DNA of 64,000 nt, from the IMG/VR virus record IMGVR_UViG_3300033405_000003. One strand, given 5' to 3'. The stretch comes from a virus. Its lineage: Duplodnaviria > Caudoviricetes. A model generated the notes under the pieces. The model was not told the origin of the DNA. It worked only from the letters and a program-made list of their open reading frames with translations, and searched no databases. Below, piece by piece: positions 3,575 to 47,340 of this stretch (positions are counted from its first letter, which is position 1; each line of letters begins with the position of its first letter). The translations under genes were made by a program, and so were the position numbers.

Positions 3575-4815
3575 TGTGACGCTCCGTTCGCGACAGGCGG
3601 GAGCCAGAACTTCGGCTCGATGTTGAACTCGTAGATCGAATGGACGAGCGTGGAGAGGTTGAAGCAGAGGCACTTCAGGAGCACCTCGTTCACCTGCGCT
3701 ACGGGCAGCTTGCTCCGAAGCGCGGCACCGAACTTCTTCTTCATCGCGCCGAACGTGCTCTCGACGTTGGAGCGCTTGTGGTAGTGCGCGAGGAAGTCTT
3801 CCTTGTTGAGGGAGTAGTAGTGAAACATCCGCTCCCACGCCGGGCTGCCCATGCTCTTCGAGTTGAGCTTGAACGGCACGAACGGCGTCGCGCCGACGCC
3901 CTCGACGATGGCGAGGTTCGCGTGGCTCAGGTAACCCTTGTCCGCGCTGATCTCCTTCATGTCGTAGCCGTGCGCAGCGGTGCGCTCGACGAGCGTCTTG
4001 AACATCGGTGAGTCGTGCACGGTGCTGTCGGTGACCGCGACGGACGTGATGATGTTGGTGACGGTGCCGATCATGGCATGGCACTTCACCCACTTCTGGA
4101 CGCGGCGATCTTCGCCGTGCTTGTAGTCGAACCATCGCACGTACGTCGGCGTTGCGAAGCCAGTCGCGTCGGCCGCGAAGTCGTGCTCGATGGCCTTGAG
4201 CGGCGTCGCGGCAAGCTCGACGAGGCTCGTCAGCACGGGCGTCAGCTCGGGCTTCTGGCAGTAGTTGAAGATCGAGTTGTAGTGCGGCTGCCGCGTCATG
4301 AGGCCTGCGGCCTTGCACGCCTTGATGTCCGTGGTCGCGCGTCGCCCGCTGACGGTCGTGTAGACCTTGGTCGCCATGCCGTACACCGCGTCCGCGAGCG
4401 GGATGGGCTTGGGACCGCGTCCGGGGTGTGGAGGCGTCACGATCGTGTCGCAGAGCGAGCGGAGGAGGACCTGGGAGACCTCCTTCTCGGTGCACTGCGC
4501 CGCGTTGTACGCGCGCCAGTCTTGGGAGTACGAGATGCGTTCTACGGTTTCGGTCACGACAGTCGTCCCGTCGGGCATCTGCACTTCGTGGCGGAAGTAC
4601 CGGAGTGCCCAGAGGTGCTTGCAGAGATCGCGATGCGTCTCGTAGTCCGGGCACGTACACTCGCTCTTGACCGCGTCGACGACGTAGCCGCTTCCCGAGT
4701 TTGTGGCCGACGGCACGAGAAACATGTCGCCAGAGATTTGCCGGAACAGCTTGGCGCGCCCCTTCGCGAGAGCGAGCCCCCGTTCCTGCCGAGGACTGAT
4801 GACTGCCGTATCCAT
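3571..4815 (-). CDS. SWIM-zinc-finger DDE transposase (IS4/IS5-like)
   Basis: SWIM CTCPD...CKH; DATGF, ADKGY, YHKRSNVESTF. Confidence 0.9.
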   Translation of the reverse strand: MDTAVISPRQERGLALAKGRAKLFRQISGDMFLVPSATNSGSGYVVDAVKSECTCPDYETHRDLCKHLWALRYFRHEVQMPDGTTVVTETVERISYSQDWRAYNAAQCTEKEVSQVLLRSLCDTIVTPPHPGRGPKPIPLADAVYGMATKVYTTVSGRRATTDIKACKAAGLMTRQPHYNSIFNYCQKPELTPVLTSLVELAATPLKAIEHDFAADATGFATPTYVRWFDYKHGEDRRVQKWVKCHAMIGTVTNIITSVAVTDSTVHDSPMFKTLVERTAAHGYDMKEISADKGYLSHANLAIVEGVGATPFVPFKLNSKSMGSPAWERMFHYYSLNKEDFLAHYHKRSNVESTFGAMKKKFGAALRSKLPVAQVNEVLLKCLCFNLSTLVHSIYEFNIEPKFWLPPVANGASQ

Positions 4816-4822
4816 ACCTAGA

Positions 4823-4882
4823 GTGTAGCCACGTTAGGGCTACAGTCCAGCCCTTGACGGGCGGGACCTAACGTGGCTACAC
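4823..4882. promoter_or_regulatory. Perfect 16-bp inverted repeat over divergent promoters
   Basis: GTGTAGCCACGTTAGG (4823-4838) and CCTAACGTGGCTACAC (4867-4882); TTGACG at 4854. Confidence 0.7.
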
Positions 4883-7575: not shown

Positions 7576-7961
7576 GCCGCCTCTTCCCGAGAGCCCCGCC
7601 GCGAACGCCGCTCCCGCGCGCCGATCTGGCGAGGGCCCAGCCGCGGAGACCGCCCACGCCACGCCCGAAGAGCTTCTCCCCGAGACCGACGTCGCCGGCG
7701 CCGCTACGGGCCACCATCGAATGGCGAAACCCCCACGGCGACTACTGGCGCACCGAGCGCGTCGCCGGGCGCTTCGAAGCTATGGCCGTGAGAGGCCGCG
7801 AAGGAGGGACGCACTGGAACACGTTCTCGTACGTCGTCTTCGACTACGAGGACAAGGAGTGCTCCTGCAAGGTGATCCGCAAGTCGAAGGGGGGATCGAT
7901 CGAGAGCGCGAAGCTCGACGCCGAGCGCGAGATCAGGATCAGGATGGCGGGGCTTCTCTGA
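7572..7961 (+). CDS. Hypothetical protein
   Basis: GTGA overlap; protein-like C-terminal half. Confidence 0.5.
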   Translation: MSRLFPRAPPRTPLPRADLARAQPRRPPTPRPKSFSPRPTSPAPLRATIEWRNPHGDYWRTERVAGRFEAMAVRGREGGTHWNTFSYVVFDYEDKECSCKVIRKSKGGSIESAKLDAEREIRIRMAGLL

Positions 7962-8213
7962 TCACTGCAGGACGAGGGGTTTGATCGGCTCCTCGTAGAC
8001 GCGAACGTAGATGTGCGGCGGCGACTGCGGCTTCTCGGCGCGGACTTCTCCGACGTGGGCGTCGCACCGGATGAACGCTTGGATCGGGTGCTCGAGGCTC
8101 GGGCTCGCCATGTCCTCGAAAGACCAGACAATGAGGATCGTCGCCGGGGCGCCGCATTTCTGGCAACCCTTACGCACTTGAACCTCGACCGCCCGCCGCT
8201 GTTTGTTGTTCAC
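7962..8213 (-). CDS. Hypothetical protein
   Basis: CQKC motif; follows infC. Confidence 0.5.
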   Translation of the reverse strand: MNNKQRRAVEVQVRKGCQKCGAPATILIVWSFEDMASPSLEHPIQAFIRCDAHVGEVRAEKPQSPPHIYVRVYEEPIKPLVLQ

Positions 8214-11614: not shown

Positions 11615-11929
11615 ATGATGGTGATGACCCTCCACATCAACCGGCCGCGGCCGAAGACGAACCGACCACCGCTCGTCGCGACCCTCAAGGTCACGGGCCC
11701 CTACCGCGCCGAGCACCGCAAGAAGAAGACCTTCGGCATGTGGCGCGAGAACATCGAGGACGCCTTCCGCGACGCCAAGCGCCTCGGCAGCGGCGCCGCC
11801 GTCGTCTCGAGCGAGCGCGTGCTCCTCGCGAAGTTCGAGAACGCGGCGAAGTTCCTGCCGGAGGAGAGCCGGAAGGAGGCGCTGCCGCGCCGCCACAAGC
11901 GAATCACCCAGGAGGACGACGAAGATTGA
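11615..11929 (+). CDS. Hypothetical basic protein
   Basis: GC3-biased frame; start uncertain. Confidence 0.55.
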   Translation: MMVMTLHINRPRPKTNRPPLVATLKVTGPYRAEHRKKKTFGMWRENIEDAFRDAKRLGSGAAVVSSERVLLAKFENAAKFLPEESRKEALPRRHKRITQEDDED

Positions 11930-12143
11930 GCGCGAGGTTCTTCCTCCGCTCCCTCCGCTCGCGCGAGAGGCGGGCCGACCGCTCCGCCTTCGTCTCCGTG
12001 GGCGGACACTCGGTGCAGTAGCAATGCTCGGAGACGTTCGAGATGCTCCGCCTGACGACGTGCCCGCACGCGAGTACGCACTCCGACCTCTTGCCGCCCT
12101 TGTCCCTCTTGCGGCTGACGACGCGCTTCAAGACACCTCTCAT
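11904..12143 (-). CDS. Small Zn-binding protein
   Basis: LACGH...CTEC; AAGGAG SD. Confidence 0.55.
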   Translation of the reverse strand: MRGVLKRVVSRKRDKGGKRSECVLACGHVVRRSISNVSEHCYCTECPPTETKAERSARLSRERRERRKNLALNLRRPPG

Positions 12144-12262
12144 CCGGTGGCTCCTTGGTTGGGACCGGCGACCATAATGCCGCGGCCGGGGTGGGCCAAC
12201 TTTTCTGCGACGAATTTTGGCGGAGATTGACACCGGGGCTTCGCCCGCGCGAGGCTCGTGCC

Positions 12263-12454
12263 ATGGCGAGCAGGGTCGACGTCGTCGTTCCGCTATCTTG
12301 GACCAACGGGGACAGGGAACCGCTCGAAAAGTTCTGCCTCGCGATCGCCCCGACCATCAAGGCGAGGCCGGGCAAGGAGGGGCGGTTCTCCAAGGACTAC
12401 TCCTACTCCGTCGTCCGCGATCTCTTCGAGAAGTGGGTGAACGAGAACTTGTGA
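12263..12454 (+). CDS. Hypothetical protein
   Basis: GAGG SD, GC3 bias. Confidence 0.5.
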   Translation: MASRVDVVVPLSWTNGDREPLEKFCLAIAPTIKARPGKEGRFSKDYSYSVVRDLFEKWVNENL

Positions 12455-12459
12455 GGGGG

Positions 12460-12487
12460 TTGACGGCGAGAGGCCCATGGCTACACT
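12460..12487 (+). promoter_or_regulatory. Sigma70-like promoter for the Pth2/tRNA-like cluster
   Basis: TTGACG-16-TACACT. Confidence 0.6.
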
Positions 12488-12561
12488 CGAGCCCATGACC
12501 TGCTCGCTCCTACAGTGAATCGGCGGAACGCCGAACCGTTGCGAATCCCCTGACCCACTTC

Positions 12562-12855
12562 GTGATCGTCAGGGGAGACCTCCCGAGAGGCCTGCAGGGC
12601 GCCATGTTGGTGCACGCGGCCGGGGAGTCGAGCCCAGGAAACCTGCCGGAGAACACGCACGCCATCGTGCTCGCGGTGCCGGACGAGCCCTCGCTCGCGG
12701 CCGTCGCAGGGCGGCTCGCGAAGGCTTCCGTCCCGCACGTGACGATCCGTGAACCCGACGCGCCGTGGTGCGGCGCGCTCATGGCCATCGGCGTCGTGCC
12801 GGGGAGAAAGGAGGACCTCAGGCGACACCTCTCGTCGCTCCCCTTGCTCAAATAA
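12562..12855 (+). CDS. Peptidyl-tRNA hydrolase type 2 (Pth2-like); true start probably upstream
   Basis: (HF)VIVRGDLPRGLQGAMLVHAAGES, IVLAV, IREPD, LMAIGVVP, LSSLPLL. Confidence 0.8.
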   Translation: MIVRGDLPRGLQGAMLVHAAGESSPGNLPENTHAIVLAVPDEPSLAAVAGRLAKASVPHVTIREPDAPWCGALMAIGVVPGRKEDLRRHLSSLPLLK

Positions 12856-12871
12856 CGAGAAACGCAGTCAC

Positions 12872-12947
12872 GCCCTCTTAGCTCAGTGTTAGAGCACTCA
12901 TTTATCTAAATGAGAGGTCCGCCGTTCGACTCGGTGAGAGGGCTCCA
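12872..12947 (+). tRNA. tRNA-like gene with 8-nt anticodon loop (identity unassignable)
   Basis: GCCCTCT/AGAGGGC acceptor + TCCA; normal D and T arms; CTCAT-TTATCTAA-ATGAG. Confidence 0.8.
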
Positions 12948-12948
12948 T

Positions 12949-13002
12949 GGGGACGCCTTGCAGGTAAGCTGCAGCGCTGGTGTGAGTCCAGCCGTCCCCG
13001 CC
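12949..13002 (+). ncRNA. Minimal tRNA-like RNA lacking one arm
   Basis: GGGGACG/CGTCCCC acceptor, TGCAG-GTAAG-CTGCA hairpin, GCTGG-TGTGAGT-CCAGC T-like arm. Confidence 0.6.
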
Positions 13003-13003
13003 T

Positions 13004-13084
13004 GCGCGAATAGCTCAGTGGTAGAGCATCATCCTGCATCTTGGTGTAGGGTGAGGGTCGGTGGTTCAAGCCCATCTTCGCGCA
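13004..13084 (+). tRNA. tRNA-like gene with 11-bp anticodon stem
   Basis: GCGCGAA/TTCGCGC acceptor; TAGCTCAGTGGTAGAGC; TCATCCTGCAT-CTTG-GTGTAGGGTGA; GGTGG-TTCAAGC-CCATC. Confidence 0.8.
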
Positions 13085-13118
13085 CTGAATTAGCATTACT
13101 CATAATCCGATAAAACTA

Positions 13119-13193
13119 GGACCCTTAGCTCAGTAGGCAGAGCAGCGAGACTGTAGAACTCGCAGGTCGCCGGTTCGAGCCCGGCCGGGTCCG
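13119..13193 (+). tRNA. Atypical tRNA-Tyr(GTA)-like gene
   Basis: GCGAG-ACTGTAGAA-CTCGC (9-nt loop), short variable arm, GCCGG-TTCGAGC-CCGGC. Confidence 0.75.
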
Positions 13194-13214
13194 CCCAAAT
13201 ATCAGAATTTGGAA

Positions 13215-17013: not shown

Positions 17014-17424
17014 TCACTCGACTCCCGCGGAGAGGATCGCCTCGAGCTTCTCGATCTCGGCGTCGATGATCATGCGATCCGCCTTGAGCGCGTCGAGCCG
17101 GAGCCGCGCGAGCGCGAGGCGATCGTCGTGGGTGTACTCGACCTTGGCCGCGAGCCGGCCGGTCATGTCTCCGTGGGGCTCGGAGAACGCGCTCACGACG
17201 ACGTGGGGACCCGCCCACATGCGCTCGTCGTGGAAGAAAGTCACCTGGAGGGTCCAGCTCCCGAAGTCCTCGTCGAAGAGTATGTTCATGTTCCCGTCGC
17301 CCGGCGGGTGCTTCTTCCGCGCGAGGACGATCCCCTTCTCGAGGGCCGCGCGCATCTTGTCGCGGATGACCTCGGGCACGTTCTCGAGCCGCTCGACGGC
17401 GTACTCCCTCGTCGCGGTCGCCAT
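17014..17424 (-). CDS. Hypothetical protein
   Basis: Coupled to Ku stop. Confidence 0.65.
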   Translation of the reverse strand: MATATREYAVERLENVPEVIRDKMRAALEKGIVLARKKHPPGDGNMNILFDEDFGSWTLQVTFFHDERMWAGPHVVVSAFSEPHGDMTGRLAAKVEYTHDDRLALARLRLDALKADRMIIDAEIEKLEAILSAGVE

Positions 17425-18191
17425 CAGCTCGCCGTCAAGCTGCGCTTGAGCGCCTCGAAGAGGTCCGTGATGATGGCCTTGGGCGCCTCCTCGGCGAACG
17501 AGACCTCGAGCCCCGCGATCTTCTGGTCGACGGCCGCGCGGACGCGGTCCTGGTACTCGTCGCGGTACCTCTCCGCCTTGAACTCGGGCGAGCTGAGCTG
17601 CGCGATGAGCTTGAGCGCCATCTCCATCTCTAGGTCCTTGAACGCGGCCTTGGCGGGCGCGATCTCGTCGTAGCTCCGCACCTCGCCCGCGTAGTAGATG
17701 TACTGGAGGACGAGGCCGTTCTTGTACGGCCGGATGAAGACGACCTGCTGCCGGCCGCGGGTCCAGTAGCGGCCGACGGCGACCCGGCCGGCGCCCTCCA
17801 TGGCCTGCGCGAGGAGCTGGAACGCCTTGTCGCCGCCCTTGTCCGGCCCGATGTAGAAGCTCTTCTCGACGTGGATGGGGTCCACGGTCTCCTCGGGGAC
17901 GAACTCGGTGATCTCGAGCGAGTCGATCTTCGCGGACTCGAGCTTCTTCAGCTCCTCCTCCGTGAACTGGACGTACTGGTCCTTGGCGAACTCGAAGCCC
18001 TTGACCATGTCGGTGCGCTCGACGACGACGTTATCGACGGGGCAGAGATATTGCTGCTTCATCCGGCCGCCGCACTTCTTGTGGAGCAGGTTGAAGGAGA
18101 GGTTCTGCGAGGAGGCCGCCGTGTAGACCTTGAAGGGGATCGAGACGAGGCCGAAAGAGATGGTACCGGAACCGATTGCGCGGGCTGTCAT
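17424..18191 (-). CDS. ku: Ku DNA end-binding protein
   Basis: RAIGSGTISFGLVSIPFKVYTA, VKGFE, YYAGEVR, YRDEY, DLFEALKRSL. Confidence 0.95.
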   Translation of the reverse strand: MTARAIGSGTISFGLVSIPFKVYTAASSQNLSFNLLHKKCGGRMKQQYLCPVDNVVVERTDMVKGFEFAKDQYVQFTEEELKKLESAKIDSLEITEFVPEETVDPIHVEKSFYIGPDKGGDKAFQLLAQAMEGAGRVAVGRYWTRGRQQVVFIRPYKNGLVLQYIYYAGEVRSYDEIAPAKAAFKDLEMEMALKLIAQLSSPEFKAERYRDEYQDRVRAAVDQKIAGLEVSFAEEAPKAIITDLFEALKRSLTAS

Positions 18192-18215
18192 GGGGAGCAA
18201 GGTAACGATCCTGGG

Positions 18216-18267
18216 CTGGGAGTCAAGTGACGTTGTCTGGGAGTCAAGTGACATTGTTTGGGAGTTA
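18216..18267. repeat. 21-bp tandem repeats in divergent promoter region
   Basis: CTGGGAGTCAAGTGACRTTGT x2 plus partial third copy. Confidence 0.85.
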
Positions 18268-18311
18268 TCTAACCCTTGCGTTTCCGCAGCGGCATCGCTA
18301 CCTTGGCGGCC

Positions 18312-18500
18312 ATGAGGAAAGCCGACGAAGGCATCAGCACGGTCCAACTGTCCATCCGCGTCCCGAAGGACTGGCCGGCGCGCGCCGAGAGGATCGCGGA
18401 GAAGCTCTCCGTGCCCGGCATCACGTGCACGCGGATGGACGCGCTGCGCGCCGCACTCGAGATCGGGTTCAAGAGCCTCGAGAAGAGGAAGAAGAGGTAG
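18312..18500 (+). CDS. Ribbon-helix-helix-like regulator
   Basis: VQLSIRVPKDWPARAERIA...TRMDALRAAL. Confidence 0.7.
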   Translation: MRKADEGISTVQLSIRVPKDWPARAERIAEKLSVPGITCTRMDALRAALEIGFKSLEKRKKR

Positions 18501-18504
18501 CGAC

Positions 18505-18861
18505 ATGGGGAGCCATTCGACGATCGAAGAGAGAGACGGGCAGGTCGTTCTTTTCCACCGCGTTTACGCCCACGAAGGATTCGAGGAGAGCGCGCGCGCC
18601 ATTTTCCGGGTCATCCAAGTCGCGTTGAAAGCCCAGCCAGGCAAGAAGCGGATCTTCTTCTTGCTCATCGATGGGCACCGGAACGCGGCGGGCGGTTTCG
18701 ACGCGGAGATGCTCGAGCTTCAGGGCGAATTTATGTTCAAGCACGTGATGCCGTTCCTCACGGAGATCCATATCCCGCTCGGCGCCTACCGGAACAGCAA
18801 GCCGCAGCGGGACGACGCCCCAGAGGGGGTGACCTTCGCGAGCGAAGCCGAAAAATTCTGA
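18505..18861 (+). CDS. Hypothetical protein
   Basis: GAGG SD. Confidence 0.65.
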   Translation: MGSHSTIEERDGQVVLFHRVYAHEGFEESARAIFRVIQVALKAQPGKKRIFFLLIDGHRNAAGGFDAEMLELQGEFMFKHVMPFLTEIHIPLGAYRNSKPQRDDAPEGVTFASEAEKF

Positions 18862-21306: not shown

Positions 21307-23088
21307 ATGGCGATCAGAATCAAGCGTGGGCCCGTCGTCCTCATCGCGATCCTCGGTGCAGTGGGACTCTTCTTCGGCATCCGGGCCGTCGTCGGCAAGA
21401 TGCCCGGACATGAGGCCGAGGTCCCGAAGACGGCGGAGCTGCCGACGCTGAAAGAGAACACCGTGCAGAGCGCGTCGGTCCCGAAGACGCCGCTCCCGGG
21501 CACCGTCGCTACTGGCAAGGGTACGGACGTGCGCGCGATGGTGTGGGCGTGGAACGCGCAGATGGGCCTGCTCTACGCGAACGGCGGCGCCGACACGACG
21601 CAGGGCTCGCTCATGGCTGCACGCAACGTGAACCTCCACTTCACCCGCGAGGACGACACCAGCAAGATGGCCGCTCAGCTCATGGCCCTCGCGAAGAACG
21701 TCGCCAAGAACATCGAGGGGACGGACGGCGTGCACTTCATCACGCTCATGGGCGACGGCACTCCGAGCTGGTTCGCTGGGCTCAACGCGGACCTGAAGAA
21801 GATCTGCGCCGACTGCACCGCCGAGACCGTCGGCGTCCTCGGCTACTCGCGCGGCGAGGACAAGTTCATGGGCCCCGCCGAGTGGAAGGACAGCCCGAAG
21901 AAGGCCCAGGGCGCGCTCATCGCCGGCGTGATCCGCGACGGCGACTGGAACGTCGCCATGAAATGGGCCGGCGACAACGGCATCCTCAATAACCCCGACG
22001 AGACGACGTACGACCCCGACGCGCTCAACTGGGTGAACGTCGACAACTTTCTCGAGGCCCCGAAGAAGTACATCCTCGGCGTCTGCGAGGACCGTCCCGT
22101 CGTGCACCAGGGGCGCCGCACGGGCCAGACCAAGAACGTGTGCGTGAACGCCGTCGTCACGTGGACGCCCGGCGACGTCAACGTCGCGCAGCAGAAGGGC
22201 GGCCTCCAGTCGATCGTCTCGACCAAGGAGTACCGGAGCCAGATGCCGTGCGCGCTCATCGGCATCAAGAAGTGGGATCGGCTCCACCGCGACGTCGTCG
22301 AGGGCATCCTCCAGGCGTCCTTCGACGCGGCCGACCAGGTCCGCGCGTACCCCGACGCGCTCGCGCGCGCCGGCGAGATCAGCGCCGCCGTCTACAAGGA
22401 ATCCGACGGCCCGTATTGGGTTCGCTACTTCAAGGGCGAGACCGAGAAAGACAAGCAGGGGCTCATGGTGCCGCTCGGCGGCTCGTCGGTCTCGGACCTC
22501 GCCGACAACGCGCAGGTCTTCGGCCTCGCGCCCGGGTCCGTGAACCTCTTCGCCGCCACGTACACGACCTTCGGCGACATCGCCGTCCAGCAGTACCCGA
22601 AGATCGTGGGGAGCTACCCGCCCGTCTCGGACGTGCTCGACACGTCCTACGTCGAGGACCTCCTGAAGAAGGCTCCCGTCGCGACCACGTCCGCGGACGT
22701 CGCCACGTTCAAGAGCGGCGCTGCCATCACGAGCGTCGTCTCGAAGAAGAGCTGGAGCATCACGTTCCAGACCGGCAGCGCCGCGTTCTCCCCCGACGCG
22801 CAGAAGACCCTCGACGCGCTCGAGAAGGACCTCGTCATCACCGACCTCGTCATCGAGATCGACGGCCACACCGACAACACGGGCGACGCGTCCGGCAACA
22901 AGGCGCTCTCGCAGAGCCGCGCGAACGCGGTCAAGGACTGGCTCATGAAGCAGTCGACGACGAACTTCCCCGCCGACCGCTTCACCGTCAAGGCGTTCGG
23001 GCAGGACAAGCCCGTCGCGACGAACGACACGGAAGCCGGGCGCAGCAAGAACCGCCGCGTCGACGTCATCATGGGCACGGCGGAGTGA
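21307..23088 (+). CDS. Substrate-binding protein fused to OmpA-like domain
   Basis: N-terminal anchor; [26 protein letters not shown]. Confidence 0.9.
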
Positions 23089-23091
23089 TAC

Positions 23092-23697
23092 ATGGGCTAC
23101 ACGACAAATTTCTCAGGCGAGTTCAAGATCGACAAGCCGCTCAAGCCGGAGCACACACAGTATCTCCGAGCGTTCGGAGAGACGCGGCGAATGGAGCGCT
23201 TGACCCAAGAAGACATGGACGCAGGTCGCCTTGAGAAGATCAAGCGGAACGCTTACCGAGCGGGAGCCGGAGATGGGTGGAGCCCATGCAACAGCATGCC
23301 GGACCCGGCACGCGTTGCCACTGGTCTTCCCATCGGGCCGAGCGGGGCGTACTTCGTCGGCGGCGCCGGCTTCGGTGGTCAGAGCAAAGACGATTCGATC
23401 ATCAACTACAACGAACCGCCCGAGGGACAGCCGGGGCTCTGGTGCCAATGGGTACCGAATGAGGAGGGCACTGCGATCGAGTGGGATGGTGGTGAGAAGT
23501 TCTACAACTACGTCGAATGGCTCCAGTACCTGATCCATCACTTCTTGGCGAAATGGGGTTACGTGCTCAACGGCGAAGTCGAGTGGGTCGGAGAAGACCG
23601 AAGCGACACCGGCAAGATCGTCGTCGAGAACAACGAGGTCACGACGAAACGAGGTCGCGTTGTCTACGATGACGACGACGAGGACGACGGAGGCTGA
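23092..23697 (+). CDS. Phage-type hypothetical protein
   Basis: MGYTTNFSG...WCQW...WDGGEKFYNYVEWL. Confidence 0.75.
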   Translation: MGYTTNFSGEFKIDKPLKPEHTQYLRAFGETRRMERLTQEDMDAGRLEKIKRNAYRAGAGDGWSPCNSMPDPARVATGLPIGPSGAYFVGGAGFGGQSKDDSIINYNEPPEGQPGLWCQWVPNEEGTAIEWDGGEKFYNYVEWLQYLIHHFLAKWGYVLNGEVEWVGEDRSDTGKIVVENNEVTTKRGRVVYDDDDEDDGG

Positions 23698-23848
23698 AAT
23701 GGGAATGACCCTTGGCGCCGAGAGCGTAGCGCTCCCTCAATAGAGCTAAGAGCTATTGCGTCAAGCATCGTAACGACTATCGACTTGCTAGGTGCGGATA
23801 GGTAACCGCCACACAAGAATCATCACAAGAGAAAGGAATTATAAAATC

Positions 23849-24688
23849 ATGCGTTCATCAAACAAGTCCATCAATCTGAAGCTGCCCTCCATCGAGGCAC
23901 ATAGTGCCTGCTACGCGCTCATCGGTACCGGTCCGATGCTGGTCCACGCATTCGGCCAGAAATCGTTCACCGAGATGCTCGAAAAGATGGTCGGCTGTCG
24001 CCAGGACGGTACGCCTCTCGACTCTGAACGCGAACCCAAGGATCTCGAGCGCGAGTTCGTGGACGCCCACGCATTCAACGAGCGGGGCGAGGAGGTGATC
24101 CCTTGTCGATGGATCAAGGCCGGTATGCTCACGGCCGTCGCCGCGAGTCGAAAGCAACTCAACGCTTCGGCGATGCGGCGCGCGGTTCGCGTGACGGGCT
24201 TCACCTCTCCCATCCTCGACCCAAAGGGTCGCAAGGCCGCCACAGCCGAACTTCAGCACGACGTCGTCCGCGTCGGCTCTTGGTCGAACCGCACTCCCGA
24301 CGTCCGCGCACGGCCGCGCTACGATGAGTGGATGATCGAAATCGTCGTCAAGGTGATCGTCGATCAGGTTCCCATGGAACACGTGGCCTGGGCGCTCTCC
24401 GCCATGGGCGAGCTGGTCGGTCTCGGCGACTGGCGAACGGAAAAGAACGGTGAGTACGGCTTTTTCAAGATCAAGGGCCTTCACGTAAACGAAACCGATC
24501 GCATCATGAAGGCTTGCTCTTCACCCGAGCGTAGGCTCGTCATCCCGCCCGCACTCATGACGGCAATGAAGACCAAGGGCATTACCCAAGCTCAGGTGCA
24601 CGAAGAGATGGAGCGCATCAAGGGTGGTGGCAAGAACAAAAGCAAGAGCCGCTCGAACGGTGCTCAGTCCCACGGCGAAGTGTCATGA
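23849..24688 (+). CDS. Stand-alone RAMP/Cas7-like RNA-binding protein
   Basis: GAAAGGA SD; LIGTGPMLVH, IPCRWIKAGM, RARPRYDEW, Gly-rich loop GELVGLGDWRTEKNGEYGFF. Confidence 0.8.
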   Translation: MRSSNKSINLKLPSIEAHSACYALIGTGPMLVHAFGQKSFTEMLEKMVGCRQDGTPLDSEREPKDLEREFVDAHAFNERGEEVIPCRWIKAGMLTAVAASRKQLNASAMRRAVRVTGFTSPILDPKGRKAATAELQHDVVRVGSWSNRTPDVRARPRYDEWMIEIVVKVIVDQVPMEHVAWALSAMGELVGLGDWRTEKNGEYGFFKIKGLHVNETDRIMKACSSPERRLVIPPALMTAMKTKGITQAQVHEEMERIKGGGKNKSKSRSNGAQSHGEVS

Positions 24689-25275
24689 CGTCGACAAAGA
24701 AAGGGGCTCGCGTCAACAAAGTGCGGGCCCCTAGGATCACTGCGAGGGGCAAATACACGGTCGAAGAGATCCGTGAGGCCTGGATCATCTTCACCGAGAT
24801 GACTGGCGGCGGAGATTGGCGAAACTCGCTCACACCCGAGTTTGTGCTCGAACAGGTGCTCGCCGACAAGTCACACCCGTTGAGGCGTTACCTCGAACGT
24901 GACGTCGAGAAGGCTGCTCATCAACATTGGATCAGCCAAATCGGCCATCTGATGAATGAGGTCCGCATCTCAGTCATCGTCACTCAAGAACCTGGCAAGG
25001 TCATCCGCGTGCAGACGCGTTCGCTCGTGCACATGCCGAGGACCGCGACTCGCGACGCGGGGCGCCGCCCTCTCCGGCAGATTCGCAAAACGAAAGAGGA
25101 TCGTGACGCTCTGGCAAGGATTCGCGCGCAGTATCTACGATCCTGGGTCGGAGCGACCGAGGCACAGCTCGCCGCCATCGATGCCAACCAGTCAGCGCTT
25201 GTGGCGTTGCTTTCAGATGTGAAGCGAGCGCTCAGGCGCTTCGACGACTCTCTCAACATCGATGCTGCTGAATAA
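24685..25275 (+). CDS. Partner protein of the RAMP locus
   Basis: ATGA coupling to RAMP gene; LTPEFVLE...HPLRRYLERDVEKAAHQHW. Confidence 0.75.
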   Translation: MTSTKKGARVNKVRAPRITARGKYTVEEIREAWIIFTEMTGGGDWRNSLTPEFVLEQVLADKSHPLRRYLERDVEKAAHQHWISQIGHLMNEVRISVIVTQEPGKVIRVQTRSLVHMPRTATRDAGRRPLRQIRKTKEDRDALARIRAQYLRSWVGATEAQLAAIDANQSALVALLSDVKRALRRFDDSLNIDAAE

Positions 25276-25282
25276 CGTAAGA

Positions 25283-26030
25283 ATGGACTGTAATAGGGGA
25301 AAGGAAGGGACAGGACTGGACGGTATAGGAGTGGAACGGCCGGTAACGGAGCCGACAGGAGAGTAATGGATCGACAGGAGAGTAATGGATCGGCCGGTAA
25401 ATGGAACTGATTGGAAGCGAGCGGAACGGACGTGGCGGGATCGGTGTGGAGCGGATCGGCCGGTAATGGATTGGACGGGACATGAACGTATTGGAGTCGA
25501 AGTGACAGGACTGGCCGGAAAAACGGAATGTATCGTAGGGGAACCGAACGGAACAGAATCGAACGGACCGGCCGGAAATGGAATCGATGGGAATGGAGTG
25601 ACGAGGAAAGGATCGTAAGGGATAGGACAGGACCGGAACGAGAATTGGTCGGAAAATGGATAGGAGCGAGCGGAGGCGTGAGGGAACGAAGCGGCCGGTC
25701 AAAAGGGAGCGGATGGAGAGGAATGGAGAGGAAAGTACAGGAACGGTTGATAATGGAACGAAGACGACCGGACTGGCCGGAAAAGCGGAATGTATCTGGA
25801 GAGGATAGGATAGGAAAGAAGGGAACAGGATCGGCCGGATAGCGGAATCGAGAGGACAGGCCAGTACAGGGAACGGACCCGATAGGAGGCGAGTCGACTG
25901 GAGTGGAAACGGAAGGGCCGGAAGAGGAATGAAATGAATGGACTGGAGCGGCCGGAGAACAGGAACGGAATCGATCGGATAGGAAGCGATCGTATCGGAC
26001 GGGAGTGGAAAGGCCGGACAGTGGAAAGAA
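25283..26030 (+). repeat. Non-coding NN-GGA pentamer array with GGCCGG punctuation (putative guide-RNA array)
   Basis: 5-nt periodicity; exact GGCCGG at 25338, 25392, 25458, 25513, 25570, 25693, 25775, 25833, 25916, 25950, 26012 and GGTCGG at 25647. Confidence 0.9.
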
Positions 26031-26067
26031 GCGAGATCACTTCTCTACGAAGGATGGAAACCTGAGC

Positions 26068-26220
26068 ATGAGCAAAACGGCAAGAATCGAATACGACGAC
26101 GACGTGCTCAACATCATCGTCGCTGTCAACGAGATCCTGAAGGATCGCAAGCTAGAGGTCATCTTCGATGGAGAAGAGCACGATGGGTTCGAGATCATCT
26201 TGTTAAAGGACCTTTCCTAA
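26068..26220 (+). CDS. Small acidic protein
   Basis: Coupled to permease start. Confidence 0.55.
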   Translation: MSKTARIEYDDDVLNIIVAVNEILKDRKLEVIFDGEEHDGFEIILLKDLS

Positions 26221-26999
26221 TGGCCTTCCGCGACGCCTGGATCCCCAACGGTCGCGTCTCGAAGCGCGTGCACTTCATTCTCGGTGCTGGCACCGTTGCG
26301 CTCTTCTTCATCGCGTGGGGCCTGCGACCGACGTTCATGCCCGGACCTATGGACGTTCTTCGCGCGTACCCGCGGCTCGCGGACCAGGGACTCGCTCAGC
26401 AGCTCTTCGTGAGCCTCACGACAAATTTCCAGGCCATCGGTCTTTCGTGTCTGCTCACGATTCCGCTCGCGTACCTCACGGTGCTCCCAGCCGCGAGGCC
26501 CTTCGTGCGCACGCTCTCGAAGATGCGTTTTTTGGGACTCACGGGCCTCACGGTCGCCTTCACGCTCGCCTTTGGCGGCGGCCACGCGCTCAAGGTCGCG
26601 CTCCTCGTGTTCGGCATGGGCGTCTTTCTCGTGACGAGCCTCTACGACGTCGTCGAGGCCATCCCGAAGGAAGAGTTCGACCACGCGCGCACGCTCCGCA
26701 TGTCGCCGTGGGGCGCCGTCGTCGAGATCGTCGTGCTCGGCCATCTCGACGCGGTGCTCGACGCCGTCAGGCAGAACGCGGCGATGGGCTGGGTGATGCT
26801 CACGCTCGTCGAGGGTCTCGTCCGCTTCGAGGGCGGCCTCGGCTCGATGATGCTCGCCGAGGACAAACACGTCGCGCTCGATGCCGTCTTCGCGATCCAG
26901 CTCCTTGTCCTCGTCGTCGGCGTGCTCCAGGATCTCGCGCTCTCGTGGCTTCGGCGCATCCTCTGCCCGTATGCGAGCCTCACGCTGGAGCGACAATGA
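26220..26999 (+). CDS. ABC transporter permease (NitT/TauT-like)
   Basis: Multiple TM; EAA-like EEFDHARTLRMS. Confidence 0.9.
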   Translation: MAFRDAWIPNGRVSKRVHFILGAGTVALFFIAWGLRPTFMPGPMDVLRAYPRLADQGLAQQLFVSLTTNFQAIGLSCLLTIPLAYLTVLPAARPFVRTLSKMRFLGLTGLTVAFTLAFGGGHALKVALLVFGMGVFLVTSLYDVVEAIPKEEFDHARTLRMSPWGAVVEIVVLGHLDAVLDAVRQNAAMGWVMLTLVEGLVRFEGGLGSMMLAEDKHVALDAVFAIQLLVLVVGVLQDLALSWLRRILCPYASLTLERQ

Positions 27000-28029: not shown

Positions 28030-28896
28030 GTGCAAATCGAGGCTTTTCATCCGATCGGGCAGAACGGTGCTCGCGTCTCCTACGAGTTGAAGGACGTTCT
28101 CGTCAGCATCAAGGACATCGGACTCGCGTACGGTGGCAGGCCCATCCTCGCGAACCTCTCGGCGGAGGTTCGCGACATCGTTCGACCGGGTTGCGTGACG
28201 GGGCAGGTCGTCGGCATCCTCGGACCGTCGGGTGTTGGCAAGACGCAGCTCTCGCGCATCATGACGGGCTTGCAGGAGCCGACGTCTGGCGAGATCCGCG
28301 TCGGAGCCGGTGACAAGAGCGAGAGAGTGCACGCGGGGCTCGTCGGCTACGTCGCGCAAAAATATCCGCTCCTTCGACACCGCACGGTGCTCGGCAATCT
28401 CGTCACAGCATCGAGACGCGCGGGCGCAAGTGCGGCGGAGGCGAAGGACAAGTCGATGGACTTCCTCAAGCGCTTCGACCTCTCGGACAAATGGGATAGC
28501 TACCCGGCGGAGCTTTCTGGCGGCCAGCAGCAGCGCGTCGCCATCGCGCAGCAGCTCCTCTGCTCGGAGCACTTCCTCATCCTCGACGAGCCGACGACGG
28601 GGCTCGACCCGCTCATGAAGGACAAGGTCTGCGCCCTCGTCCGGCAGGTTGCTTCGATCTCGGAGGAGAACACGATCTTCGTCGTGACGCACGACATCGC
28701 GGCCATCCTCACGATCGCCGATCATCTGTGGCTCCTCGGGCGCGACCGCGACGCCCAAGGCGCTTCGCTCGGCGCTCGCATCCAGCACCACTACGACCTC
28801 ATCGAGCGCGGGCTCGCATGGCGCGACGACCCGCAGGCGCTGCCGGCGTTCGCGGAGACGATGCGCGAGGTCCGCGCGAGGTTTCAGGAGCTATGA
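28030..28896 (+). CDS. ABC transporter ATP-binding protein
   Basis: GPSGVGKT, LSGGQQQRVAIA, LILDEP, VTHD. Confidence 0.95.
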   Translation: MQIEAFHPIGQNGARVSYELKDVLVSIKDIGLAYGGRPILANLSAEVRDIVRPGCVTGQVVGILGPSGVGKTQLSRIMTGLQEPTSGEIRVGAGDKSERVHAGLVGYVAQKYPLLRHRTVLGNLVTASRRAGASAAEAKDKSMDFLKRFDLSDKWDSYPAELSGGQQQRVAIAQQLLCSEHFLILDEPTTGLDPLMKDKVCALVRQVASISEENTIFVVTHDIAAILTIADHLWLLGRDRDAQGASLGARIQHHYDLIERGLAWRDDPQALPAFAETMREVRARFQEL

Positions 28897-34491: not shown

Positions 34492-35382
34492 TCAAGACGT
34501 CGCGTTCTTCGTGGCCCCGTTCGGGGCCGAGACGTTCACGGCCGGCTGCGGCTGCGACTGCTGCATCACTTGCGTCGCGGTCTCGGGCGCGGCCTGGACC
34601 ACTGGCGCCTGCGACGGCGGCGGGACGTACGCGCCGGGCGGGACGCCGTACGCAGCCTGGGCCGGAGCTGCGCCCGGCACGTACGGGGGGACGTACGCGC
34701 CGCCTTGCTGCGGCTGCTGCATCGGTTGGTTCGGCTGGTTCGACATAGGACCGAGCGGCATGGGCTGCGCCCGAAGGAGCGCTGCTGCGGCCTGCTTCGG
34801 GTCGCGGTAGTCGACGGGGCCTTGCGGCATCTCGGGCAGTGGTTGCTGCTGCTGCGGCTGCGCATACTGCCCTCCTCGCTGCTGCTCGGCGGGGCCCGGC
34901 CCGTAGGCTCCGCCTCCGGGCTGCGGGTAGGAGCCCTGCTGCGGGTATCCCGGCTGCTGCGGGTATTGGCCCGGTTGCTGCGGGTACTGCTGCTGCGGGT
35001 AGCCCGGCCCGAGCTGCGGCGGCGGGCGGCGCATCGGAGCCCTCGGTCCGCGGCCCATGAGGAACCGCTTCAGCTCGTCCTGCCAGTCAAGCTCGCCCTT
35101 CATGATGTTCTCGAGGTTCTGCTTCTTGGCCTCCCCCTTCGCGAAGAGGATGGCGAGGTGCTCGCCCATGGCGGGAGGGAGCTGCTCGCCCTCGAACGCC
35201 AGCGCGAGGTCGCCGAGGCCCGCGTCGAGCTTCATGAGCGCCTCCTGCTGGAACATGTAGCGCCTCTCGCTCTGGCCGATGAGCGCCATGAGCAGGCGCG
35301 GCGGGGCGTAGGCGCCCATGTCTTGGCGGCCGAGGCGCGCGTCCATGGGGCGGGGCGGGGGCGGCGGAAAGTTTCGGTTCAT
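34492..35382 (-). CDS. Pro/Gln-rich protein
   Basis: ATGA coupling to radA; YPQQPG repeats. Confidence 0.7.
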   Translation of the reverse strand: MNRNFPPPPPRPMDARLGRQDMGAYAPPRLLMALIGQSERRYMFQQEALMKLDAGLGDLALAFEGEQLPPAMGEHLAILFAKGEAKKQNLENIMKGELDWQDELKRFLMGRGPRAPMRRPPPQLGPGYPQQQYPQQPGQYPQQPGYPQQGSYPQPGGGAYGPGPAEQQRGGQYAQPQQQQPLPEMPQGPVDYRDPKQAAAALLRAQPMPLGPMSNQPNQPMQQPQQGGAYVPPYVPGAAPAQAAYGVPPGAYVPPPSQAPVVQAAPETATQVMQQSQPQPAVNVSAPNGATKNATS

Positions 35383-36935
35383 TGGATCTCGCTCTCGTTC
35401 TCTTCGGCCTCGCGGAGGGGGCTCTTGCGTTTGTCTTTCTTGATTTTCGATTGCTTGGGCTCGGGCGGCACGATCACGAAGCCCTCGAGCAGGTCGAACG
35501 CCTCCTCGAGCGACGTGACGGGATAATACCTCTCGTTGAGGTTCACCTCCTCGTCCGAGAGCGGCATCGCCAGTGCTTGTGACGCCTCGGGCCCGAAGTC
35601 GTAGGACGGGCGCCTGGGGCCCACGATCATGTCGAAGTGCATCGACATCGCGGTCTTGATGCGAGCGTCGATGTACGTGACCGGGCGGACTTCGCCCGCG
35701 AGGCCGACCTCGCCGAAGGCGACAAAGGACGGGGGCAAGGCAGTGCCGAGCGCGAACGACGCGAGGGCGAGCGCTAGCGGCAGATCGAGCGCCGGGTCCT
35801 TCACGTCGTCGAGGCCTCCAGGCAGGTTCACGAAGACCTCGCGGTTCAAGTCCAGGCCGAGCCGCCGCTGGAGGATCGCGATGATCTGCGTCGCGCGCTG
35901 GCTCGAGAGGCCCGTGATCACGCGCTTGTGCTGCGCGCTCGACGCCCCGTTCGAGGAGGACGGGCCGAGGAGCGTCTGGAACTCGACCGCGTACGGGCGC
36001 GGGCCCGTCGCGACGAGGCCAATGCACACGCCCTCCTTGCCGTCCTTGTGGTGCTGCAGGAGCAGCTCGCTCGGGTTCTCGATCGAGCGCAGGCCCTCGC
36101 GGGTCATCCGGAAGAGGGCCATCTCCTCCGTCGAGCCGAAGCGGTTCTTGTTCGCGCGGATGGAGCGGATGTCTCCGAGCCCCTCCTTGTGGAACTCGAG
36201 CGTCGCGTCGACGAGGTGCTCGAGGACCTTCGGGCCCGCGATGGTCCCGTCCTTCGTCACGTGGGCCACGAAGAAACAGCCGATGCCGCGCCGCTTGCAG
36301 AGGTCGCGGAGGTAGAGCGCGCACTCCCGCACCTGCGTCACGGTGCCGGCGGCCCCGTCGACGCCCGGCATCACCATGGTCTGGATGCTGTCCACGATGA
36401 GGATGTCCGGGTCAAGCTCGGCGATCTGCTTGCCGACCTCCGTGACGTCGGACTCGTTGTGGAGGTAGAGCTTCTTCGACTCCCTCGAGAGGCGGACCGC
36501 GCGGCCCTTGATCTGCGAGGTCGTCTCCTCGGCCGAAACGTAGAGGATGACGAGGTCGTCGATCCGCTCGCCCGTCTGGTCGTCCGTCATCGGGGCCACC
36601 GAGAGGTCGATGCAGACCTGGAGGAGCAGCGTGCTCTTGCCGATGCCCGGGTCGCCCGCGATCAGCACCGTCGAGCCCGTGACGATGCCCCCGCCGAGCA
36701 CGCGGTCGAACTCGCGCGTCCCGGTCGAGATGCGCTCGTAGTCGGCCTCCGGCACGTCCGCGAGGAGCTGCGGCTTCTGGCCCGCGCCGATCCAGCGGTT
36801 GCCGGTTGAGGTCACGTCGCCGACCGCGATCGTGCCGGACGCGCCGCAGTGCGGGCAGGACGGGACCCAGTCCGGGCCGACGCCGCGCATGCAGGCCGTG
36901 CAGTGGTGGCCGATGGGTTTGCTCCGGTCGATCAT
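35379..36935 (-). CDS. radA: DNA repair protein RadA/Sms
   Basis: CxxC-CxxC, GDPGIGKST, VDSIQT, KNRFG, GEVGLAGEVRPV. Confidence 0.95.
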   Translation of the reverse strand: MIDRSKPIGHHCTACMRGVGPDWVPSCPHCGASGTIAVGDVTSTGNRWIGAGQKPQLLADVPEADYERISTGTREFDRVLGGGIVTGSTVLIAGDPGIGKSTLLLQVCIDLSVAPMTDDQTGERIDDLVILYVSAEETTSQIKGRAVRLSRESKKLYLHNESDVTEVGKQIAELDPDILIVDSIQTMVMPGVDGAAGTVTQVRECALYLRDLCKRRGIGCFFVAHVTKDGTIAGPKVLEHLVDATLEFHKEGLGDIRSIRANKNRFGSTEEMALFRMTREGLRSIENPSELLLQHHKDGKEGVCIGLVATGPRPYAVEFQTLLGPSSSNGASSAQHKRVITGLSSQRATQIIAILQRRLGLDLNREVFVNLPGGLDDVKDPALDLPLALALASFALGTALPPSFVAFGEVGLAGEVRPVTYIDARIKTAMSMHFDMIVGPRRPSYDFGPEASQALAMPLSDEEVNLNERYYPVTSLEEAFDLLEGFVIVPPEPKQSKIKKDKRKSPLREAEENESEIQ

Positions 36936-45651: not shown

Positions 45652-47340
45652 TCAATAATAACACCACTGGGGATAAGGCAGGACCCACGCGCCGTAGCTG
45701 TCGGTGTAGTGGCTCTCGGGCCAGTACATCGACGTCGACTGGATGCCAGCGCGGACGTCGCCAGTGTCGTCGCCGTGGCCGAAGAGGCTCGCCCAGATGC
45801 CCCCGTCGGGCCTCTTGCCTTCGGCGACCGCCGCGAGCGCCTCCTCGCCGCCCGGCGGCCACGCCGGCGGGGTCCTCGCGAGGAGCCAGCGCGTGGCCGC
45901 GTCCGGCTTGCCGCTCGTCGGGAGCTGCTGCTGGCGCTGGAACTCCGTGAGGTAGCGCGTCGTCTCCGGCCCGATGACGCCGTCCTCCGCGACGACCTTC
46001 GTGTGCCAGTACGCGTTGAGCAGGCGCTGGATGTCCTTGACGTCCGCGCTGCCTCCGCCCCCCGTGGGCTGGACGTAGCTCGCCTGGGCGAACCCGTTCT
46101 TCTTCGGCGCCATCATCTTCGTCGTGAAGTCCTTCACGCCCCCGGGTCTCTGCGTCGCCTTCGGCGCGGCCTTCTGGGCCGGCGGCCTCGGCTGCGGCAT
46201 CGGGTACGGTTGGTAGGTGACCGGCTGCGGCATCGGCTGCGGGCGGTACGTCACCGGGGGCTGCTGCGTAGTTTGGTATCCTTGATCAGCATATTGCCCA
46301 TATTGACCATATTGGTCGTACGCCGCTTGTTGATCATATGAGCTAGTGCCGTATTGCCCGTATTGACCATATTGCGCGTACGGGATCGCCTGGCGGCGCG
46401 GCCCAATGCTGATCTGCGGCACGTTGATCTGCACGCGCGGGAGCTGGAAGGGGCGGGCCTCGAACCTCGGCGCGCTCCTCCGACCGTAGGACGGCCTGCG
46501 CGAGCCGAAGATCGACGCTCCGAGGTCCTCGGCGCCCTCCTTCAGGATGTCGACGAGGTCCTCCCCGACGAAGCTCCCCGACGTCGTGGTCTTCGGGCCG
46601 CCCATCATGTTCTGGACGACGCCGGCCTTGCCGCCGGGGTGCTCCGGCTCCGCCATCCCGTACTTCTTCGCGAGGTGGCTAAGCAGGATGTTGAGCGTCA
46701 CGTCGGGCGTCGCGTGGCTGACGCGCTTCACGGGCGGCTTCTTCGCGGGCGGCTGCGGTTGCGTGGTTGGTGCTTGCGGCTGCGCCGCTGGGATTTGCTG
46801 CTGCGCCGCTGGGGCTTGCTGCTGCGTTGCCGGGGCTTGCTGCTGCGCGGGGTGCTGCTGCGTTGCCTGCGAGATCGCCTGCGTCGCCGCCGGGACCGCG
46901 ACTTTCGCGACCTGGCCGAAGATGTTGCCGAGCGTGGAGCCGAGATCGCTGCTCCCGCCGCCTCCCGGCGCGGCGCCACCGCTCCCCCCGCCGAACGCGC
47001 TGCCGAACGAGCTTGCGAGCGAGCTGAAGTCGAATCCGCCTCCGCCGCCTCCCCCTCCTCCGCCTCCTCCGCCGCCGCCACCGCTCCCGCCGAACGCGCT
47101 GCCGAGCGCGCTCCCGATCGAGCCCATGGCGCTGCCGAAGTCGCTGCCGAAATCACCGACGTAGTAGTCGCCGGCGTAGTGGCCCGGGTAGCCGCGGAAG
47201 TGTCCGGGGTAGGCTCCAGGGTATCCGCCGAAGCGTCCCGTCACTTCTTCGTTGATCGCTTCGACCGGATCGTAGCCGACGGCCGGTCCGTCGCCCTCGT
47301 CGTCGTTCAGCGTGCCGTCGTGACCGATCCAGATCGTCAT
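45652..47340 (-). CDS. Gly/Gln-rich protein with peptidoglycan-binding domain
   Basis: DVKDIQRLLN...EDGVIGPETTRYLTEFQRQQQLPTSGKPDAAT. Confidence 0.8.
   Translation of the reverse strand: MTIWIGHDGTLNDDEGDGPAVGYDPVEAINEEVTGRFGGYPGAYPGHFRGYPGHYAGDYYVGDFGSDFGSAMGSIGSALGSAFGGSGGGGGGGGGGGGGGGGFDFSSLASSFGSAFGGGSGGAAPGGGGSSDLGSTLGNIFGQVAKVAVPAATQAISQATQQHPAQQQAPATQQQAPAAQQQIPAAQPQAPTTQPQPPAKKPPVKRVSHATPDVTLNILLSHLAKKYGMAEPEHPGGKAGVVQNMMGGPKTTTSGSFVGEDLVDILKEGAEDLGASIFGSRRPSYGRRSAPRFEARPFQLPRVQINVPQISIGPRRQAIPYAQYGQYGQYGTSSYDQQAAYDQYGQYGQYADQGYQTTQQPPVTYRPQPMPQPVTYQPYPMPQPRPPAQKAAPKATQRPGGVKDFTTKMMAPKKNGFAQASYVQPTGGGGSADVKDIQRLLNAYWHTKVVAEDGVIGPETTRYLTEFQRQQQLPTSGKPDAATRWLLARTPPAWPPGGEEALAAVAEGKRPDGGIWASLFGHGDDTGDVRAGIQSTSMYWPESHYTDSYGAWVLPYPQWCYY

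Follow-up and report, generated by a model that had tools for sequence, protein, structure and literature searches.

In the present study, we analyzed a 64,000-nucleotide stretch of DNA (the window) from the IMG/VR virus record IMGVR_UViG_3300033405_000003 (Duplodnaviria; Caudoviricetes), and the results indicated that the locus at 23849-26030 is very probably a VIPR system on a large, probably viral contig. This reading is based on the homology and fold of the Vipr protein, its contact residues, the anatomy of the adjoining array, the synteny of that array with hypervariable dinucleotides in related contigs, and one guide of a relative that fits the published skip rule. The kind of system and its logic are already in print; the noteworthy local traits are the GGA triplet and the tail-less guide units delimited by GGCCGG. 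A first-pass annotation of the same DNA had pointed to a resemblance to VIPR, and this was borne out by the homology of Vipr and by the design of the array, with its constant triplet and variable dinucleotide. The novelty that it implied did not hold, since the VIPR kind has been published and alternative consensus repeats are mentioned there.

VIPR systems (short for Viral Interference Programmable Repeat) are CRISPR-related, carry out RNA-guided DNA silencing and were first described in 2026 preprints (bioRxiv 10.64898/2026.04.26.720920,.720927). According to these preprints, a system comprises Vipr, which is a minimal RAMP protein, a vap accessory gene and vrRNAs with 9-16 YNNGG repeats (Y, pyrimidine; N, any base), whose NN dinucleotides recognize double-stranded DNA by reading it with a 1-nt skip. 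The systems are found mostly in phages and silence rival mobile elements. In the cryo-electron microscopy (cryo-EM) structure of the SUSP1 complex, each Vipr subunit grips the triplet of one pentamer and exposes the NN, and the residues on the two guanines are H17, R138, D177, W178 and R179. The pocket for the third base is described in the structure paper as narrow, with purines excluded; GGY>GGA was among the GGY-motif substitutions tested in SUSP1, and perturbation of GGY abolished silencing. The preprint also permits "a related consensus", with NNNGG, YNNNG and NNNNG repeats named in its Methods, and describes staggered arrays and ribozyme-separated arrays as further architectures (bioRxiv 10.64898/2026.04.26.720920,.720927). 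In addition, a genomic-language-model preprint has reported period-5 VIPR-like arrays with non-GGY triplets beside Vipr-like folds (bioRxiv 10.64898/2026.10.21.760802).

The first gene of the locus, vipr (23849-24688, + strand), encodes a 279-residue minimal RAMP protein of the Cas7 type, which carries an extra C-terminal helical region of ~65 residues and a basic tail. The protein adopts a Cas7/Csm3 fold in which the parts of a minimal RAMP were recognized, namely a single RRM core, a G-loop and a thumb, in agreement with the RAMP/Cas7-like assignment made at first pass. Pfam gave no match for this gene or for the second gene of the locus. In PHROGs, Vipr was assigned over nearly its full length to phrog_4652 (E 3.3e-13), the family that also holds the SUSP1 protein (E 1.4e-96) and the proteins of Gordonia phages (E about 1e-50). 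When searched alone against the PDB, Vipr matched 36pp_D, "SUSP1 Vipr protein" (E 0.0045), and a profile of eight Vipr homologues matched SUSP1 Vipr with an E of 4.6e-7 over 125 residues covering the thumb and the G-loop. A tblastn search of isolated phages with Vipr recovered phiSUSP1 and its relatives, with stronger matches in Gordonia phages (E 8e-11 to 1e-9). In the alignment, to which no solved complex of this protein contributed, the SUSP1 residues H17, R138, D177, W178 and R179 correspond to H33, R155, D194, W195 and R196. Among 18 family members, the Arg, [D/E] and [W/Y/F/M]-R positions were kept in all, the His was present in 15, and W195 was replaced by Tyr in some. These comparisons indicated that gene 1 is a Vipr homologue.

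The second gene (24685-25275, + strand) encodes a mostly helical protein of 196 residues, and its start overlaps the stop of vipr by 4 nt; the two genes are translationally coupled. It was assigned to phrog_15946 (E 3.9e-5). Because the gene that follows vipr and a GGY array in the Gordonia phage Ecliptus belongs to the same family (E 3.9e-49), we read gene 2 as the vap of this type; the partner gene of a distant relative, the IMG/VR contig L005, also matches phrog_15946. A relationship to vap1 of SUSP1 was considered and rejected, as vap1 belongs to phrog_5926 and the hhalign probability was 0.15. A Foldseek search of the PDB with the gene 2 model (predicted local distance difference test score 74) gave no fold match below E 0.8. 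Apart from the RAMP fold of gene 1, no Cas domain was detected in the ten open reading frames (ORFs) scanned, comprising nine large ones and the 91-codon gene P0012 described below, and no CRISPR-like repeat array was found in the window. Within these scans, the locus consists of vipr and one vap without cas genes or CRISPR, and lacks the repeat-spacer array and further cas genes that make up a class 1 CRISPR-Cas module, as the first pass had already stated. A PADLOC match to NsnC (E 2.6e-4) was too weak and was not used.

Directly after the two genes lies ~720 bp of purine-rich DNA with a 5-nt period (25296-26017, + strand), which we delimited by lag-5 autocorrelation, information content, a Viterbi parse and a junction logo and which holds ~140 NN-GGA pentamers in ~14 guide units. 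Over 25276-26040, the same-base autocorrelation was 0.475 at lag 5 and 0.43, 0.43 and 0.40 at lags 10, 15 and 20, whereas composition predicts 0.307 and lags 2-3 gave 0.19-0.21. A sliding-window scan found a single 5-nt-periodic run in the whole 64 kb, at 25251-26076. The arrangement proposed in the first-pass annotation, two coupled genes followed by a 5-nt NN-GGA tract, was thus confirmed, together with the units that it had quoted at 25401-25460 and the lag-5 signal that it had suggested checking. Its estimate was about 12 segments ending in GGCCGG; the GGCCGG ends and A-rich linkers were present, 11 of the delimiters are exact (between 25338 and 26017), three are degenerate (GGTCGG at 25647, GGTTGA at 25745 and GGCCAG at 25859), and each of the three splits one long segment, which brings the number of units to ~14. 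Tandem Repeats Finder did not call the array, because the NN vary, and reported only a perfect 19-nt duplication at 25353-25392. An Rfam scan of the window returned tRNAs only and no hammerhead ribozyme.

When the register was read back from each GGCCGG, the segments showed a linker of 2-5 mostly A/T bases, then the NN-GGA pentamers, and then a last NN-GGC followed by CGG. The units hold 5-13 pentamers, mostly 9-13. Within the in-phase units, pentamer positions 1-2 carried 0.01-0.12 bits of information and positions 3, 4 and 5 carried 0.68, 1.18 and 1.47 bits, respectively. The most constant base was the final A (91%); 30 of the 54 triplets were GGA, and the final A was also retained in the variants CGA, TGA, GTA and GAA. 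The constant trinucleotide and hypervariable dinucleotide that define a vrRNA gene were both found, at 0.7-2.0 bits for the GGA positions and 0.01-0.12 bits for NN.

All units lie on the + strand. Unit 1 (25296-25343; Viterbi parse) has 9 pentamers and a GGCCGG end, unit 2 (25344-25397) has 10 pentamers and includes the perfect 19-nt internal duplication, unit 3 (25398-25463) has 12, and units 4 (25464-25518) and 5 (25519-25575) have 10 each. Three stretches are each divided in two by a degenerate delimiter: units 6a and 6b (25576-25698) by GGTCGG at 25647-25652 followed by AAAA, units 7a and 7b (25699-25780) by GGTTGA at 25745-25750, and units 9a and 9b (25839-25921) by GGCCAG at 25859-25864. 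Unit 8 (25781-25838) has 10 pentamers with one 6-nt step, unit 10 (25922-25955) is short, with 5 pentamers, and unit 11 (25956-26017) has 11 pentamers and the final GGCCGG.

At the core of the delimiter, CGGCCG (in some units CCGGCCGG) can pair with itself and forms a DNA palindrome, and neighboring delimiters in a precursor can therefore pair and loop out one guide. In a fold of 25380-25480, the delimiters were paired, with a minimum free energy of -28.9 kcal/mol and a z of -1.66. Such pairing could mark processing sites or join two RNAs at their 3' ends. It is not general, because the delimiter in L005 is non-palindromic. Duplications within arrays were observed in three loci: besides the repeat in unit 2, runs of seven dinucleotides are shared between 7768-7819 and 7981-8064 of the related contig L001 and between 1851-1921 and 1987-2037 of the related contig L002. 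Local duplication, after which the NN diverge, may be how arrays grow.

To place the locus in its family, we compared it with relatives carrying Vipr homologues. Close homologues are rare and fall into eight clusters at 90% identity, all from metagenomic or short NCBI contigs, and the wider Vipr family has 3059 representatives at E<=1e-3. A search of IMG/VR returned L005 as the sole, distant relative, and a search of GTDB genomes for host or prophage copies of this Vipr clade returned none. Vipr identity to the window is 85-89% for L001 (two alignments), 53% for L002, 57% for L003 and 38% for L005, and L015 is more distant. Following up the homologue check proposed at first pass, we found an array on the same strand after both genes in all six relatives with readable downstream DNA, among them L001, L002, L003, L005 and L015, and a conserved partner gene beside vipr in L001, L002, L003 and L005. 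GGCCGG with its A-rich linker of 2-5 bases showed no variation across 46 junctions from four loci, and it is found again in L015; the delimiter of L005 differs (GCAGGTCA). The junction logo built on these 46 junctions bore out the GGA-based, GGCCGG-delimited form that had been proposed. The array of L003 (1639-2861) has ~1.2 kb, ~20 units, a much more degenerate triplet and many 4- and 6-nt steps. No guide was common to different loci, and repeats occurred solely as duplications within a locus. Hypervariable NN in a constant frame is the pattern expected of guides.

The base that follows GG in the window is A in 80% of cases and C or T in 17%, the latter mostly in the terminal GGC. The share of A after GG is 80-85% for the window, L001 and L002, 56-60% for L003 and L005 (56% in L003), 0% for SUSP1 and 3% for Ecliptus; in L015 the base is mixed, with 57% C and 35% A. 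In a MAFFT alignment, E71 and M72 of SUSP1 Vipr align with Trp88 and Ile89 of the window protein; Trp occurs at the E71 position solely in the A-rich clade, and the position is Ala in Ecliptus and in the L015 Vipr (P0020). In an HMMER alignment, M72 aligns with Met93, and the helix is shifted by one turn relative to MAFFT. Since the two alignments disagree and the sequences are few and related, we propose a link between Trp88 and adenine only hypothetically. A tentative extension, which we regard as rather unlikely in its entirety, is that the clade represents a purine-reading VIPR lineage in which Trp88, located where helix 1 begins and where Glu71/Met72 restrict the SUSP1 pocket to pyrimidines, admits adenine; in which the tail-less vrRNAs are set by GGCCGG, with its palindromic CGGCCG core, as a signal for processing or 3'-end pairing; and in which large related Myxococcota viruses (~200 kb) target one another's genes, among them the small gene that is coupled to a DDE transposase. 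If this were true, a handful of residues in the pocket would suffice to re-code the constant triplet of VIPR, and guide arrays for multiplex use could be made very compact.

The closest system studied in detail is the type II VIPR of SUSP1 (bioRxiv 10.64898/2026.04.26.720920,.720927, 10.64898/2026.10.15.759431; PDB 36pp). The two Vipr proteins are homologous, with ~24% identity, a shared PHROG and the profile match given above. Both loci share the aligned residues that contact G1 and G2 and a two-gene operon followed by an array of constant triplets and variable NN, and the context of the present locus is, like that of SUSP1, probably viral; a wobble-phased match with a 1-nt skip was seen here for a guide of the relative L001. 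The third repeat base is A in 80% of cases in the window and T or C in 93% in SUSP1. Units end here in GGCCGG and 2-5 A-rich bases instead of a hairpin/pseudoknot tail of ~35 nt, and the ~14 short units follow one another every ~50-65 nt, where SUSP1 has three vrRNAs of ~100 nt. The Vap proteins belong to different families (phrog_15946 and phrog_5926, respectively), and the Vipr of the window has a longer thumb and the C-terminal extension of ~65 residues.

The closest Vipr relatives in cultured phages, as found by tblastn, are annotated as hypothetical proteins in the Gordonia phages Ecliptus, ODay, UmaThurman and Pipp. Like the window, Ecliptus has an accessory gene in the same PHROG as Vap and a pentamer array adjoining vipr; unlike in the window, that array is made of GGC/GGT (95% pyrimidine), lies between vipr and vap and lacks GGCCGG delimiters, and the Gordonia proteins are without the C-terminal extension and the clade-specific Trp88. 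In Ecliptus (OP820472.1; L007 3130-3350), this GGC/GGT-NN array of ~220 nt is located between gp19 and gp20, in the tail-gene region. In UmaThurman, the Vipr homologue gp39 (L008) adjoins integrase and repressor genes. Compared with the backbone proteins of class 1 CRISPR-Cas systems (Csm3, Cmr4, Cas7 and Cas7-11), the locus lacks a repeat-spacer array, and cas1, cas2, cas5, cas6 and cas10 were not found in the ten ORFs scanned. VIPR also has a period of 5 nt and not 6, pairs two of five guide bases and reads a double-stranded DNA target with gaps. The locus resembles the arrays of the genomic-language-model preprint in its period of 5, its non-GGY constant triplet and the adjacent Vipr-like fold; the motifs given there are GAC, CAC, WGT and TGH, and GGA is absent from the main text of that preprint (bioRxiv 10.64898/2026.10.21.760802).

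To search for targets, we decoded the guides into NN.NN.NN patterns and compared them, at skips of 0-3, with the window and L001-L003 and, at a skip of 1, with L005 and L009-L011, using shuffled guides as the null. One guide of L001 (L001 8065-8120) matched the window at 3348-3376 on the - strand at 19 of 20 positions under the 1-nt-skip rule, while skips of 0, 2 and 3 gave 15-16 and the maximum among 3000 shuffles of this guide was 17. Every skipped base of the site is a third (wobble) codon position, the codons reading V-D-D-V-L-A-G-R-F-P. The same guide matched the homologous gene of L010 at 17 of 20 positions, and it fits there at the codon that is mismatched in the window (Thr instead of Ala). 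The guide reads in the same sense as the coding strand, and its pairing partner would therefore be the template strand of the DNA, not the mRNA. This result, which concerns a relative's guide and not one of the window's own, is the main functional evidence suggesting that the clade obeys the published code.

The matched site lies in P0012 (3299-3574, - strand), a 91-codon gene of no known family whose product ends in CPHCGHH and has homologues in L009-L011. Its first 4 nt are shared with the end of a DDE transposase gene (3571-4815, - strand; DDE_Tnp_1 E 5e-20, with an N-terminal SWIM zinc finger), and the two are translationally coupled, so the target may be part of a transposable element that resides in the virus. 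A perfect 16-nt hairpin was observed just upstream of the transposase gene, at 4823-4882.

For the window's own guides, a lead was obtained with unit 3. After trimming to 20 specified bases, this unit gave four matches in GTDB genomes, three of them independent; its ten central dinucleotides are antisense to the ATERRVALKV strand of Ser/Thr kinase genes in Myxococcota metagenome-assembled genomes (MAGs). Three of the matches fall in the ATE/DRRVALKV strand of Hanks-type Ser/Thr kinase genes, two in Myxococcota MAGs and one in an Acidimicrobiales MAG, and the fourth, from a Planctomycetota MAG, has this motif too, but in an ORF of 22 codons whose identity as a kinase was not confirmed. Between the two myxobacterial orthologues, the differences within the site occur solely at skipped bases. 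The chance expectation was ~1 match in 596 Gb, and more in GC-rich, kinase-rich genomes. Because the number of matches is not above chance, we keep them as a mere lead and a weak hint at the host. No kinase gene was found in the window. Trimmed unit 11 gave two matches of identical sequence in IMG/VR, at 21 of 22 positions in the AT-rich contigs L020 and L021; they were off codon phase with stops nearby and were dismissed as chance.

On the basis of these data, the following mechanism is proposed. Transcripts from the + strand would carry vipr, vap and the array, and cleavage of the array RNA at the GGCCGG/A-rich junctions, or close to them, would release vrRNAs of ~35-70 nt with 5-13 pentamers each. 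One Vipr protomer would then bind each pentamer, and a filament would assemble. The first-pass annotation had likewise proposed one subunit per pentamer presenting NN; cryo-EM showed this for SUSP1, and for the present protein it is predicted from the conserved contact residues. His33, Arg155 and Asp194-Trp195-Arg196 would hold the two guanines, and the adenine would occupy a pocket between neighboring protomers. The exposed dinucleotides would pair with double-stranded DNA as NNxNNx..., with every third base skipped, so that guides would track codon positions 1-2 of their targets. Binding would presumably silence transcription of rival mobile elements or related viruses, which we infer to be the targets of the window's own guides, with Vap assisting.

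Several observations weigh against the assignment to VIPR. The GGY of published VIPR repeats is lacking in the array of the window, where the third base is A, and GGY>GGA belongs to the motif perturbations by which silencing was abolished in SUSP1; membership in the wider family is compatible with this lack, because the preprint allows a related consensus and NNNGG repeats. Inside several guide units the step is 4 or 6 nt, and some guides may therefore be decayed. A structured 3' tail of the SUSP1 kind was not found, as single units folded no better than shuffles (z -0.8 to +0.9), and no usable promoter or terminator was detected around the locus with sigma-70-like models, a type that may not be the host's. 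Among the targets, the window's own guides gave no match above the shuffled null in the window, L001-L003, L005 or L009-L011, a result that, for the window itself, fits the expected avoidance of self-targeting; the exact full-length NNx patterns of units 3, 4, 5, 6a and 11 gave no match in IMG/VR. Moreover, the L001 guide match would be a self-match if the L001 virus has the same target gene.

The same data bear on three other explanations. The locus might encode a true VIPR-type ribonucleoprotein with an output unlike that of SUSP1, such as RNA targeting or recruitment of a nuclease or other effector, with Vap or the C-terminal domain of Vipr providing the coupling. The separate family of Vap relative to SUSP1 vap1, its lack of a recognizable fold and the ~65 extra Vipr residues, which the SUSP1 and Gordonia-phage proteins do not have, are in keeping with such an output, and nucleases or helicases are reported in some VIPR types (bioRxiv 10.64898/2026.04.26.720920,.720927). 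However, domain searches of Vipr, Vap and the flanking genes revealed neither a nuclease nor a helicase, positive support is lacking, and the sole convincing match, that of the L001 guide, would address template DNA and not mRNA; we consider this explanation improbable. A DNA-level element, for example iterons, a packaging or replication site, a protein-binding array or a satellite, that neighbors a RAMP gene by chance and yields no guide RNA would account for the undetected promoter, terminator and RNA structure and for the palindromic delimiter core. We judge this very improbable, as the tract stays beside vipr-vap on the same strand in relatives down to 38% identity or less while its NN are wholly changed, its 5-nt unit and its blocks of 5-13 pentamers (mostly 9-13) largely match published vrRNAs, and a relative's unit fits a coding sequence at 19 of 20 positions under the vrRNA code. 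It is hardly conceivable that the tract encodes a repetitive protein, even though ORFs of 77-149 codons can be drawn on both strands (25253-25702 and 25699-26040 on the - strand, 25385-25618 and 25528-25842 on the + strand) and a gene caller placed a 358-residue ORF across the L003 array. G+C by codon position is flat in 25253-25702 (0.51/0.53/0.61), in contrast to 0.85-0.95 at position 3 in neighboring genes, and conservation between loci was seen for none of the ORFs. Because the 5-nt period is not a multiple of three, every reading frame cycles through the repeat, and the variable linkers shift the frame at every junction.

The window has a G+C content of 66.6%, and identical Vipr proteins occur on contigs of up to 219 kb. 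Third-position G+C is 0.73 in vipr and 0.69 in vap, and 0.69-0.74 over 23092-25275 including the preceding gene, compared with 0.85-0.95 in the neighbors, which suggests that the cassette was acquired from a less GC-rich source. A Ku-like DNA-end-binding protein (17424-18506, - strand; E 2e-43), a RecA/KaiC/DnaB-like ATPase (35379-36935, - strand; phrog_26214, E 7e-87) and an endolysin-like protein that has a peptidoglycan-binding domain and a PHROG match (45652-47340, - strand) fit a large phage, and a viral origin is likely. Among the genes identified in the window, none was for a capsid, portal or terminase. A tRNA cluster at 11643-13195, called by ARAGORN and Rfam, comprises Ser(tga), which lies on the - strand, followed by Met(cat), Tyr(gta) and a further tRNA; for the tRNA at 12872-12947, ARAGORN assigned a 4-base anticodon (atct), and Rfam also calls a tRNA there. 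Upstream of the cassette lies a gene for a 593-residue protein with a C-terminal OmpA/MotB-like domain (21307-23088, + strand), and downstream lie genes for a putative permease (26220-26999) and an ABC-type ATPase (28030-28896, + strand); the OmpA/MotB-like protein and the ABC ATPase/permease are unusual phage cargo.

So far, one VIPR type has been studied in depth, and the present locus adds a well-delimited example from a GC-rich contig of ~219 kb. Comparison of its Vipr with that of SUSP1 should reveal the pocket residues that set triplet specificity. The array accommodates ~14 guides in 720 bp, using a 6-nt delimiter but no folded tail, which bears on the processing of vrRNAs and on how compact multiplex arrays can be. 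Finally, the wobble-phased match of the L001 guide, with agreement at 19 of 20 positions, takes the skip rule outside the enterobacterial and Pseudomonas phages and supports the idea that VIPR serves in conflicts among closely related viruses or their resident mobile elements.

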